This document shows positions 29,236-32,291 of a stretch of 64,000 nt of DNA, piece after piece; the first letter of the stretch is position 1, and each line of letters opens with the position of its first letter. The stretch lies in NCBI GenBank assembly GCA_002733545.1, contig NVVX01000001.1, forward strand, positions 45,099-109,098. The letters run 5' to 3'. A program made the translations under genes and the position numbers. A model generated the notes under the pieces. That model did no database searches. It was not told the DNA's origin and saw nothing but the letters and a program-made list of their open reading frames with translations. This DNA comes from Alkaliphilus sp. Its GTDB lineage: Bacteria; Bacillota; Clostridia; Peptostreptococcales; NVVX01.

Positions 29236-30774
29236 ATGCAATTAGAAAAATTGTTGAAAAACGTACAAAAAATAAATATAGTTGGAAAAGCCGAAATAAA
29301 CATAGAGAAGATTTGCTATGATTCTAGAAAAATAGAAAAAAACGACATGTTTATATGCATAAAAGGATTCGAGCATGACGGACATTTATTTATTGAAGAG
29401 GCAATAGAAAATGGTGCTACTGTTATTGTTGTTGAAGCAGGGCACAAATGGAAACACAAGGGGACGGTTCTCTTGTGTCTCTCTAAAAGGACACAACAGG
29501 ACACAAGAGAACCGTCCCCTTGTGTTTCTCTTCCTACAATAGTGTATGTAGAAGATACAAGAAAAGCGATGGCAGAGATAGCTAATAATTTTTATGAAAC
29601 TCCTAGTGCTAAGATGAAAATAGTAGGGATAACAGGGACTAATGGAAAGACGTCGGTCTCGTATATGCTTATGGACATACTGAAAAAAAATGGGAACAAA
29701 TCAGGCTTAATAGGAACTATTTCATATACTACAGGCAAAGCTAAACAAACTGCTATGAGGACAACACCAGAATCTATAGACTTGAATAGATTATTAAATG
29801 ACATGGTCGTTAATAATATGGATAGTTGCGTTATGGAAGTATCTTCTCATTCATTAGAGTTGGACAGAGTATGGGGAATTCATTTTAATGTTGGAGTTTT
29901 TACTAATCTCTCATCTGACCACTTAGATTTCCATGGAAATTTAGAAAACTACAAGAATGCAAAGAAAAAACTATTTACTAAAACTGAGCAATTTAATGTG
30001 ATAAATATTGATGACGAAGTAGGAGCAGAAATAGCAAAAGAATTTGACAAATTATCAACACCAGTATTGACGTATGGTATAAATAGTTGTGCTAGTATTT
30101 ATGCCAAGGAGATTAAGCTTACAAACTTGTCAGTGGATTTCGACCTTGTTACACCTACGTTTAATACTAGAGTTAGAATTAATACCCCAGGTTTGTTTAC
30201 AGTATACAATGCGCTTGCTGCTATTTCTAGTGCATACGCCCTAAAGATCTCTGAATCTGCAATTGTTAAAGGCATAACAAGCTTTAGAGGAGTTCCGGGA
30301 AGATTTATGAGAGTGCAAGAATTTAATGAAATTTCTGTAATAGTTGATTACGCACATACTCCCGACGGATTATTGAATGTGCTAAACACAATAAATGCTT
30401 TCAAAAAGAATAGAATTATCACTGTCTTTGGATGTGGTGGAGATAGAGATAAGAAAAAAAGATCTGTCATGGGTAGAATTGCTGGCAAATTGAGCGATTT
30501 TACAATTATAACATCAGATAATCCTAGGTCTGAAAAAGCAGAATTAATAGCATCAATGATAGTAGAAGGAATAAAAGAAACAGATGCTAATTACAAGGTC
30601 ATTCTAAACAGAAAAGACGCAATCAATTATGCAATAAAACATGCAAAAGTAGGAGATACTATTTTAATTGCAGGTAAGGGACATGAAACGACGCAAGTTG
30701 TTGGAGAGAAGACACTCTATTTTAACGATACAGAAACCGCAATTTTAGTGGGTAGAGAAGAGGGTATTATATGA
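29236..30774 (+). CDS. murE: UDP-N-acetylmuramoyl-L-alanyl-D-glutamate--2,6-diaminopimelate ligase MurE, carrying an in-frame repeat insertion
   Basis: GITGTNGKTS; DYAHTPD; and GCGGDRDKKKR followed by DNPR, typical of MurE. The ORF is intact at 512 aa despite the palindromic insertion. Confidence 0.93.
   Translation: MQLEKLLKNVQKINIVGKAEINIEKICYDSRKIEKNDMFICIKGFEHDGHLFIEEAIENGATVIVVEAGHKWKHKGTVLLCLSKRTQQDTREPSPCVSLPTIVYVEDTRKAMAEIANNFYETPSAKMKIVGITGTNGKTSVSYMLMDILKKNGNKSGLIGTISYTTGKAKQTAMRTTPESIDLNRLLNDMVVNNMDSCVMEVSSHSLELDRVWGIHFNVGVFTNLSSDHLDFHGNLENYKNAKKKLFTKTEQFNVINIDDEVGAEIAKEFDKLSTPVLTYGINSCASIYAKEIKLTNLSVDFDLVTPTFNTRVRINTPGLFTVYNALAAISSAYALKISESAIVKGITSFRGVPGRFMRVQEFNEISVIVDYAHTPDGLLNVLNTINAFKKNRIITVFGCGGDRDKKKRSVMGRIAGKLSDFTIITSDNPRSEKAELIASMIVEGIKETDANYKVILNRKDAINYAIKHAKVGDTILIAGKGHETTQVVGEKTLYFNDTETAILVGREEGII
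29442..29528. repeat. REPIN-like palindromic element inside murE: two degenerate 10-mers plus exact 29-bp inverted arms (29451-29479 / 29500-29528) with a 20-nt spacer
   Basis: Left arm gaaacacaaggggacggttctcttgtgtc. The right arm is its exact reverse complement. Each arm is itself a 7-bp-stem mini hairpin: ACACAAG-GGGACGGTTCT-CTTGTGT. Confidence 0.9.
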
Positions 30775-32291
30775 TACAACTAACAATTGAGAGCATTGTA
30801 AATGCGTGTAATGGAATAATAATCCGTAAAGGCGCTAACAACTATATCAAGGGTATTTCAACAGACACACGTAGGATACAACCAGAGATGTTGTTTATTC
30901 CATTAGTAGGTGAAAACTATGATGGACACGACTTTGTTATAGATGCGAGCAAAAAAGGAATTTACGCTACTTTAGTAGAAAAGAACAAGAAACTTACATT
31001 CTTAAATGAATTGGAGAACATCTATGTTATAGAGGTTGAAAACACACTTAAAGCTCTAAAAGACATCAGTAAAAAGTATAAAGAGCGTTTTCAAATACCA
31101 TTCATTGCCGTAACAGGCAGCAATGGCAAGACATCTACTAAGGATATGATTAGCGCAGTTTTGTCTTCAAGATACAAAACTCTTAAGAGTGAAGGCAATT
31201 TTAATAATCAAATAGGTTTACCTCTAACATTGTTTAATTTGGATAAATCTCATGAGTTCGCAGTTTTAGAGATGGGAATGTCGTCATTTGGAGAAATAGA
31301 AGGTCTAGTTGACATAGTTAATCCAAATATAGCTGTGGTTACAAACATTGGCATGGCACATATTGAAAACTTAGGAAGTAAAGAGAACATAATGAAAGCA
31401 AAAATGGAAATATCTAAAAATCTATCAGAAGAAGATATTCTATTATTTAACGGAGATGATGAGTACTTAAAGTCTATACAACACAAGGAACACATGGAAC
31501 ACATGGAACACATGGGGACGGTTCTTCTGTGTTGCTCTGAACTTGATTGCAACAACACAGAAGAACCGTCCCCGTGTGTTCAACAGAACGACACAGAAGA
31601 ACCGTCCCCTTGTGTTCCAAGATATAAAGCTATCAGTTTTGGAATGGATAAAACTAATGACTTTTATCCTGAAAAAATATATGATTTAGGGGATAAAGGA
31701 GTTGCTTTTGATATACTCATTAATAGGGAGACAGAAAAATTCTACATAAAGCAACCCGGATTACATAATGTTTATAATGCCTTAGTTGCAATTTGGGTAG
31801 GGCTGTTTTATGAAATTACACCTAAAGAAATAAACAAATCCCTACATTCATATATACCAACAAAAATGAGAATGGAAATAATAGAAAATAACAATTGTAA
31901 AATTATTAATGATTGCTACAACGCTAGCCCCAATTCTATGAAAGCAGCTTTGTCTGTATTAGCAAACTCAGTTGGAAAAAGAAAAATAGCAATTTTAGCT
32001 AATATGTTAGAAATGGGAAGATTTTCTGAAAAAGGACACCGATTTGTAGGAAAATGTGTAGCTGAGAATAAGATTGATATTTTGATAACTGTCGGCGAAG
32101 AAGCTAAATGGATAGCTGACGAAGCGAAAAACGCTGGACTTGATAAAAGAAATATATTTAAGGTTGGCAAAATTCAAGAAACAAACCTACTCTTACTAGA
32201 AATTATCAAGCAAGGGGATACTATATTAGTCAAAGGTTCAAGAGGTATGCAAATGGAAAATATTGTCCAACTTTTACTAGAGAGGTGCTAA
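30771..32291 (+). CDS. murF: UDP-N-acetylmuramoyl-tripeptide--D-alanyl-D-alanine ligase MurF, carrying an in-frame repeat insertion
   Basis: Start overlaps the murE stop by 4 nt. VTGSNGKTSTKDM, NFNNQIGLPLTL, DCYNASPNSM, VKGSRGMQME. Confidence 0.93.
   Translation: MIQLTIESIVNACNGIIIRKGANNYIKGISTDTRRIQPEMLFIPLVGENYDGHDFVIDASKKGIYATLVEKNKKLTFLNELENIYVIEVENTLKALKDISKKYKERFQIPFIAVTGSNGKTSTKDMISAVLSSRYKTLKSEGNFNNQIGLPLTLFNLDKSHEFAVLEMGMSSFGEIEGLVDIVNPNIAVVTNIGMAHIENLGSKENIMKAKMEISKNLSEEDILLFNGDDEYLKSIQHKEHMEHMEHMGTVLLCCSELDCNNTEEPSPCVQQNDTEEPSPCVPRYKAISFGMDKTNDFYPEKIYDLGDKGVAFDILINRETEKFYIKQPGLHNVYNALVAIWVGLFYEITPKEINKSLHSYIPTKMRMEIIENNNCKIINDCYNASPNSMKAALSVLANSVGKRKIAILANMLEMGRFSEKGHRFVGKCVAENKIDILITVGEEAKWIADEAKNAGLDKRNIFKVGKIQETNLLLLEIIKQGDTILVKGSRGMQMENIVQLLLERC
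31480..31618. repeat. Same repeat family inside murF: four tandem 9-mers (AACACAWGG), one forward core unit (31506-31534) and two reverse core units (31553-31581, 31590-31618)
   Basis: gaacacatggggacggttcttctgtgttg pairs with caacacagaagaaccgtccccgtgtgttc with one G-U. A third unit is gacacagaagaaccgtccccttgtgttcc. Confidence 0.9.

Follow-up and report, generated by a model that had tools for sequence, protein, structure and literature searches.

A palindromic repeat cluster read in frame within murF of an Alkaliphilus species, probably REP-like and of a transposase-associated family

The window analysed here is a stretch of 64,000 nucleotides from Alkaliphilus sp. (contig NVVX01000001.1, positions 45,099 to 109,098, assembly GCA_002733545.1) that includes the adjacent cell-wall genes murE and murF. 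Both genes contain copies of one short palindromic repeat, and it is the cluster within murF that forms the subject of this paper (Table 1). We argue that this insert is probably a small cluster of REP-like (repetitive extragenic palindromic) repeats, belonging to a family whose units flank genes for Y1 transposases resembling RAYTs (REP-associated tyrosine transposases).

The repeat cluster in murF and its sister element in murE

The murF open reading frame (ORF) matches MurF structures in the PDB with E-values down to 4e-56, the alignment being interrupted between query residues 231 and 308, and Pfam recognises in it the domains Mur_ligase, Mur_ligase_M (in two stretches) and Mur_ligase_C. 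The repeat cluster spans 31480-31618 and comprises four 9-mers, one forward unit and two reverse units of ~29 nt, all in frame. A preliminary description of this DNA, made from the letters alone, had reported the 9-mers with their translation, the pairing of the forward unit with the first reverse unit and the presence of a second reverse unit, and these details are borne out. Tandem Repeats Finder gives the tract a period of 9, with 4.0 copies, 96% matches and the consensus AACACATGG, and translation in the murF frame yields the peptide reported; the last of the four copies runs on into the forward unit. The latter is complementary to the first reverse unit over 29 nt (97%, with a single G-U pair), and the outer arms 31504-31539 and 31584-31619 are complementary over 36 nt (92%). 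The 12-nt core GGGGACGGTTCT is found without mismatch at 31514(+), 31562(-) and 31598(-), the last of these marking the second reverse unit. Folded as RNA, the segment 31470-31630 reaches -73.1 kcal/mol (z = -9.9). As had also been noted, the 506-aa ORF is intact and the minus strand is open as well (in two of its three frames); no stop codon falls within 31480-31618 in the murF frame. The repeat unit itself is free of stop codons in every frame, so that in-frame copies can persist in tolerant surface loops, even in essential genes.

Table 1. Positions of the murE and murF genes and of their repeat elements in the window
Feature	Positions	Strand	Basis
murE, 512 aa, host of the sister element	29236..30774	+	ORF, Pfam
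murE element: units 29451-29479 (forward) and 29500-29528 (reverse), separated by a 20-nt spacer	29451..29528	+	
murF, UDP-MurNAc-tripeptide--D-Ala-D-Ala ligase, 506 aa, host of the insert	30771..32291	+	ORF, PDB, Pfam
Four tandem 9-mers AACACAWGG (flank of unit 1 plus three extra outer-flank copies), encoding HKEHMEHMEHM	31480..31515	+	
Unit 1, forward, GAACACAT-GGGGACGGTTCT-TCTGTGTTG	31506..31534, core 31514-31525	+	
Spacer or hairpin loop, 18 nt, between units 1 and 2	31535..31552	.	
Unit 2, reverse, pairs with unit 1 (29 bp, one G-U)	31553..31581, core 31562-31573	-	
Unit 3, reverse, second possible partner for unit 1	31590..31618, core 31598-31609	-	
Predicted peptide EHMEHMGTVLLCCSELDCNNTEEPSPCV, the stretch that insert-spanning peptides would cover			

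In the sister element within murE, the two 29-bp arms are 100% complementary and are read in frame as KHKGTVLLC...REPSPCV; folded as RNA, this element reaches -57.8 kcal/mol (z = -10.9). The sole further exact cores in the window, at 29460(+) and 29508(-), both belong to it, in keeping with the earlier proposal that the murE and murF repeats are one family. With up to two mismatches allowed, the core has seven matches in the 64 kb against 0.68 expected, a number that none of 100 shuffles attained. When 29300-31750 was compared with Rfam at a permissive E-value, only generic microRNA-precursor hairpin models were returned, at 18-45 bits as against gathering thresholds of 73-180.

Structure modelling, which had been suggested as a means of placing the insert, locates it in MurF's central domain, where helix 235-244 precedes it and strand 286-290 follows. 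The AlphaFold model has a mean predicted local distance difference test score (pLDDT) of 89.7 and a predicted template modelling score (pTM) of 0.87; the only stretch with a pLDDT below 50 is the insert (residues 242-279), and the invariant MurF residues all lie outside it. As modelled, the insert is presumably translated as a disordered loop of ~47 residues.

The identical 506-aa MurF is found on eight contigs. At the DNA level, the window is matched with 100% identity over 3.5 kb by loci from JGI 3300033049, from JGI 3300029216 and from SRR5988125 as assembled independently by Logan, and because the insert is identical across samples and in the Logan assembly, it is not an accident of assembly. 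In JGI 3300033047 (L202:218-264) the sole difference is a run of Ns in murE that splits the gene call; a biological difference at this point was considered and rejected, the run being a scaffold gap.

The same sites in related species

The closest relative has no insert in murF. Its MurF protein (P0002, locus L001) is 91% identical to that of the window, with 92% nucleotide identity, and is 464 aa long; the site (L001:7325-7345) is empty, reading ...KSIKLQKL-RYRAISFG, and has the length seen in distant MurF proteins. Where L001 has KLQKL the window has 47 residues, a net gain of 42 aa, which agrees well with the ~46 aa first estimated for the insert. Two further relatives carry related inserts at the same site: MurF of P0003 (locus L002, GCA_053577075.1), 74% identical to that of the window, has one doublet, HKGTVLLCCSESEYGNTEEPSPCV, and that of P0004 (locus L003), 72% identical, has two reverse units. 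Every MurF protein at or below 58% identity to the window is without the insert. Its absence both there and from the closest relative supports the earlier view that this is an insertion and not an ancient fixed linker. Unit number at the site is thus 0 in L001, 2 in L002, 2 in L003 and 3 in the window. The copy-number variation that the preliminary description had anticipated is therefore found between species; among strains no length variation in murF is seen, the eight contigs all representing one population and the 90% cluster holding a single sequence.

The murE element is found in all four mur loci, in differing states. In L001 (L001:5310-5385) the copy has decayed, with GGGGAATGTTCT in place of the core and a truncated 3' arm, and in L002 the element is intact. 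In L003 (L003:2381-2500) a second full doublet, read in another frame (GDGSFV...KNRPLV), is nested between the arms of the older element; the family inserts into its own copies. A third gene is involved in L002, where murG, confirmed by Pfam, carries an in-frame doublet, EHKGTVLLCCAEPDHDNTKEPSPCV (L002:15706-15780), so that in this species murE, murF and murG of the division and cell wall (dcw) cluster all bear copies of the repeat.

In the murF inserts of the window and L002, the two spacers are equal in length and identical at 11 of 18 positions (P about 0.006 to 0.02), which argues for orthologous inserts. Two 27-nt stretches of the arms are identical at 53 of 54 positions, as against 60% identity at flanking third codon positions; what is conserved is therefore the DNA and not the protein, the distinction that the preliminary description had proposed to draw. 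Such strong nucleotide conservation of the arms could be due to selection, to correction against other copies or to replacement.

MurF identity is 0.91 within the pair formed by the window and L001, and 0.72-0.76 among that pair, L002 and L003. Judged from these sequences, the simplest history of the murF insert would be an old insertion followed by clean loss in L001; as an alternative, there may have been two independent insertions at one site, a history with the same number of events as insertion plus loss. The L001 lineage may no longer maintain the repeats. Overall, the mur copies of the Alkaliphilus lineage are probably old and inherited and still being remodelled, with units gained, lost and nested, flank copies added and, in L001, clean loss.

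The repeat family and its associated Y1 transposase gene

The preliminary description had called for a search for additional genomic copies, and these are plentiful. A census of exact matches to the 17-base motif GGGGACGGTTCTNNTGTGT, with one genome per species, found the repeat unit in at least 118 genome stretches, nearly all from Bacillota. Among the matches listed are Oscillospiraceae, Acutalibacteraceae, Syntrophomonadaceae, Pelotomaculum, Desulfotomaculum, Acetobacterium, Tissierella, Halanaerobiales and Paenibacillus, together with three Alkaliphilus genomes, including that of the isolate A. pronyensis; a few matches come from Coriobacteriales, Prevotellaceae and metagenome-assembled genomes (MAGs) of the PVC group. 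Several assemblies contribute at least 4-6 separate contigs each. Carriage by phage is unlikely, with just two matches in 2.9 million viral contigs.

The family consensus is (R)ACACAR-GGGGACGGTTCT-NNTGTGT, the core being preceded by G-A-A-C-A-C-A-(A/G) and followed by N-N-T-G-T-G-T. As DNA, a single unit is a weak imperfect palindrome (-2.4 to -7.4 kcal/mol). Some units stand alone, others form inverted doublets, in which spacer length varies widely, and still others lie in same-direction arrays and in clusters. The variable dinucleotide matches in both arms of 33 of 36 doublets, as against 8.9 ± 2.5 when partners are shuffled. Extra copies of the outer flank (ACACA[AGT][GA]) lie just upstream of 41/217 units, in unrelated taxa, compared with 8/217 control windows, most often at a spacing of 9-10 nt. 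Since this iteration recurs across taxa, the 9-mer tract of the window is a family trait, and the earlier suggestion that it reflects simply local slippage is not sustained. Examples of such iteration can be seen at loci L103 and L035, in A. pronyensis (L042) and at a Maledivibacter locus (L210).

Across the family, long ORFs do not contain 188 of 235 units, and some 10% lie deep within ORFs (the Alkaliphilus mur loci being excluded). Eight of nine unit-bearing ORFs tested contain Pfam domains, the units being read in various frames. Genes with in-frame copies include those for a major facilitator superfamily (MFS) transporter, Peptidase_U32, M20, an amidase, orotidine monophosphate (OMP) decarboxylase, LD-carboxypeptidase and MurG. 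The MFS transporter gene (Pfam E = 2e-57), from a Coriobacteriales MAG (L004:4757-6700), carries two in-frame doublets. A CRISPR repeat, an integron attC site, an intein or intron and domain V of a group II intron were each considered as the identity of the repeat and dropped, given the perfect hairpins, the presence of the core in non-coding DNA too and the absence of associated genes of these kinds.

The gene that does accompany the family encodes a transposase. At several loci a TTGACA-like box, and then an ORF beginning MPR.PR..S..GIYH, come after a unit. TGACA directly follows 13/165 units, giving TGTGT-TGACA, which resembles a -35 box, and the gene downstream of such units is, where identified, a Y1 transposase gene, for which the unit may, judging by this box, carry a promoter. 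Boxed units of this kind are seen at L009, L012, L022, L023, L030, L064, L066, L088, L115 and L117. All six unit-associated proteins match the Pfam family Y1_Tnp (IS200-like) with E about 1e-14 to 1e-16, and the HUH and Y-x-H-x-N-P motifs are invariant in six aligned homologues. The NCBIfam model for REP-associated tyrosine transposases (REP_Tyr_transpos) scores 78.8 bits against a cut-off of 80, and close homologues carry the public label 'REP element-mobilizing transposase RayT'. A C-terminal extension of ~120 residues, ending ...GLSIRQI.RLTG.S...RK, gives weak matches to helix-turn-helix (HTH) domains (E 0.05-0.2).

At the genome loci selected for their units, every Y1_Tnp gene for which both flanks are available has one or more cores on the gene strand 20-150 nt upstream and a core on the opposite strand 9-184 nt past the stop codon (255 nt in one case). 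In a reciprocal test, 80 metagenome loci were picked solely because they encode a relative of the transposase (33-70% identity) and were scored for a core with at most two mismatches, in the right orientation and within 300 nt upstream. A core was present upstream in 30/66, downstream in 28/68 and on both sides in 21/55, the chance estimate being ~0.01 per flank; the wrong orientation was met with 3 + 3 times. At the level of sequence, these data establish that a RAYT-like Y1 (HUH) transposase gene has the repeat units as its inverted flanks, and that units are also scattered through the genomes concerned.

Nearer to the window, a contig of Alkaliphilus sp. CROMO_A_126 (L058) begins with the last 37 codons of the transposase, 80% identical to a Desulfotomaculum protein (E = 6e-14), followed by two reverse units. 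No Alkaliphilus transposase is found among the best 120 homologues of the Desulfotomaculum protein, which include those of Clostridium aceticum, Maledivibacter and Paramaledivibacter. In Clostridium aceticum (CP009687.1), a cultured relative whose genome is complete, the transposase gene lies between variant cores (AGGGACGGTTCT), and a further pair of doublets is found no more than 20 kb away. These variant-core doublets (AGGGACAGTTCT / AGGGACGGTTTT), at L208:7020-7068 and L208:13531-13579, are intergenic. At L179 (WBZS01000076.1) the same type of transposase has three exact cores upstream, spaced at 34 nt, and two cores downstream, one exact and one with one mismatch; the organism is rich in GC (67.5%), and the family is not confined to low-GC Bacillota. 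Many transposase homologues (P0122-P0240) are on contigs of ~1-1.5 kb, as would be expected if assemblies break at flanking multi-copy repeats.

Likeness to known systems, possible mechanism and alternatives

Genes resembling RAYTs that lie between long inverted repeats, and not GTAG REPs, have been described as TIRtrons encoding TIRYTs (Di Nocera, De Gregorio and Rocco 2013; PMC3733652). Many of these terminal inverted repeats (TIRs) have GGGGWSAS in common, some belong to families of moderate abundance whose members are singles, dimers and clusters, and REPs within genes are known in several species; Firmicutes go unmentioned in that paper (PMC3733652). Most TIRYTs belong to TnpA-Y1 subclass 2.1, with HTH or DnaA_C-like tails, and for this subclass REP-like sequences were not found in the 2018 survey (Quentin et al. 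2018; PMC6006769). The system described here is similar in that its Y1 HUH transposase is RAYT-like and has an HTH tail at the C-terminus, and in its inverted flanking repeats, which begin GGGG(A)(C) and are also scattered as singles, dimers and clusters. It differs from published TIRtrons in that many families of Bacillota, and a few other phyla, have one and the same 12-nt core, and in the frequent iteration of the outer flank, with a spacing of 9-10 nt.

The REP, REPIN and BIME (bacterial interspersed mosaic element) systems with their RAYT transposases, reportedly the subject of work by Nunvar in 2010, Bertels and Rainey in 2011 and Ton-Hoang in 2012, offer a second point of comparison. 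Here too there is a short imperfect palindrome, mainly extragenic, with doublets that form long hairpins, clusters and a Y1 gene flanked by the repeats (for REP/REPIN/RAYT systems see Bertels 2017; PMC5581495). REP sequences are usually species-specific, however, whereas the present core is common to several families, and the window copies are all intragenic. In this last respect they behave like the Rickettsia palindromic elements (RPEs), in-frame palindromic inserts (Ogata et al. 2000, as cited in PMC3733652) that are CGTC-tagged and have no associated transposase (PMC3733652). The likeness, an in-frame palindromic insert in a functional, even essential, gene where it is tolerated as a peptide loop, is one of behaviour only: sequence and host are different, and a candidate transposase is identified here. 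With IS608, of the IS200/IS605 group, the present system has the Y1 HUH superfamily and hairpin ends in common. IS608 moves by single-strand 'peel and paste' transposition, with seamless excision and no target duplication. Excision of that kind would fit the empty murF site in the closest relative; the end hairpins of IS608, however, lie on one strand and point the same way, so they do not form an inverted repeat. A full-text literature search with a 10-mer of the core and its complement, as DNA and as RNA, returned unrelated primer sequences only, and a keyword search found no paper on this repeat family in Clostridia; no description of the family in Bacillota appears in the papers found.

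Taken together, these results lead us to put at roughly 75% the probability that the murF segment is a small REP-like palindromic cluster from a RAYT/TIRYT-associated repeat family, of the TIRYT/TIRtron type and TnpA-Y1 subclass 2.1. Such a cluster would combine a hairpin doublet with an additional reverse unit and three additional outer-flank copies. If REP/RAYT and IS200/IS605 systems are a guide, units and doublets found dispersed would be non-autonomous copies, and the transposase would recognise the unit as a single-stranded DNA hairpin, cut it and move or join it without target duplication. Joining of this kind would permit both insertion and seamless excision, and the latter would explain why the site in L001 is empty and of ancestral length. 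The outer flank, iterated at one helical turn, may provide an array of sites to which the HTH tail binds; it could also be left over from repeated cutting or from slippage. A copy landing in frame within a surface loop that tolerates it would persist, the murF copy being situated in the central domain.

Several observations weigh against this reading. All five units in the window fall in two adjacent mur genes, whereas ~80% are extragenic across the family; such clustering may mean that neutral in-frame copies have been retained for a long time, or that targets are preferred locally. No Y1 transposase gene was found within the window, and its copies may be inactive relics. No recognisable core lies upstream at 36 of 66 related transposase loci, and the link between repeat and transposase is therefore not universal. 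The TIRtron motif GGGGWSAS agrees with the core GGGGACGG at seven of eight positions, with G for A at position 7; the terminal GTAG of classical REPs is absent, and the one place where CGTC is found is within the core, on its complementary strand. Binding, cleavage and transposition by this class of transposase are argued from analogy, and translation of the murF insert is an assumption.

Several rival explanations may be considered. Local tandem duplication or slippage could have produced a tract peculiar to murF and able to expand, perhaps acting as a contingency-type length switch and owing nothing to a mobile element; four 9-mers of perfect period, an odd number of units and the differing unit numbers in related species would all be accounted for. 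As a whole explanation this is refuted by the census, since the 12-nt core and its flanks occur in at least 118 stretches of unrelated genomes, beside a Y1 transposase gene. Iteration of the outer flank is moreover family-wide, and the eight contigs (with one member in the 90% cluster) hold no length variant. We regard it as very unlikely, although the extra 9-mers themselves may have been made by slippage. An assembly artefact, in which repeats were mis-joined or collapsed, would be a natural suspicion for a MAG, given that repeats break assemblies and that many transposase homologues are on ~1-kb contigs, but we attach next to no weight to it: the same sequence recurs in four samples, including the independent Logan assembly, the reading frame is intact and other species have related inserts at the same site. 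A selected loop rich in Cys, Pro and His (HMEHMEHM..CC..C..C), serving for instance in metal binding or protein contacts, would fit the abundance of His and Cys in the peptide and the single frame (GTVLLC...EPSPCV) shared by units in murE, murF and murG of this clade. It is nevertheless highly improbable: the arms are conserved even at third codon positions and the spacer is not, which marks conservation at the DNA level, other taxa use other frames (GDGSFV, KNRPLV, GGRFSCV), ~80% of units are non-coding, the closest relative does without the insert and the insert is modelled as disordered.

Two further possibilities concern the nature of the element. A conventional MITE (miniature inverted-repeat transposable element), derived from an insertion sequence with a DDE transposase and moved by cut-and-paste with target-site duplication, would resemble the murF insert in its 29-nt inverted arms around a short variable centre, and a possible 3-nt direct repeat (GAA) is seen at the L002 murF site. 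That repeat, however, is within chance, single units and same-orientation arrays are common in the family, and the sole gene found between or beside inverted units is that for a Y1 (HUH) and not a DDE transposase, which leaves little room for this idea. The host might on the other hand have put the hairpins to use in the dcw operon as an element acting in cis, in DNA or in RNA; they could serve, for example, in cleavage by RNase III, in pausing of translation or transcription or in protein binding, and selection on the nucleotides would then keep them. In favour of such a role are very stable hairpins of 29-31 bp, the presence of copies in both murE and murF and also in the murG of a relative, and arms that are identical between the window and L002 at 53 of 54 positions beside an 11/18 spacer and third positions at 60%. 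We consider it unlikely nonetheless: in the closest relative the murF copy is missing and the murE copy decaying with the genes visibly undamaged, the position is not the same from gene to gene, no Rfam family matches, and repeated correction or replacement by the transposase system would give the same conservation.

A related and equally doubtful proposition is that the mur hairpins are kept either by nucleotide-level selection or by repeated action of the Y1 transposase, perhaps being inserted and excised seamlessly. It would fit the empty murF site of L001, the nested murE element of L003 and the conservation of the arms above that of synonymous sites. If true, essential cell-wall enzymes would bear reversible, transposase-written peptide loops or mRNA hairpins.

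On the RAYT/TIRYT-associated reading that we favour, what had looked like a puzzling insert in two essential cell-wall genes would be ordinary genome-parasite or symbiont biology and not a new protein domain. For annotation, this would mean that peptides such as GTVLLC...EPSPCV, GDGSFV...KNRPLV and GGRFSCV in clostridial proteins derive from the repeat, as would many short 'hypothetical proteins', and for assembly that the transposase genes are often to be sought on ~1-kb contigs ending at repeats. For enzymology, the highly conserved 12-nt core is a candidate substrate for the HTH-tailed Y1 transposases.

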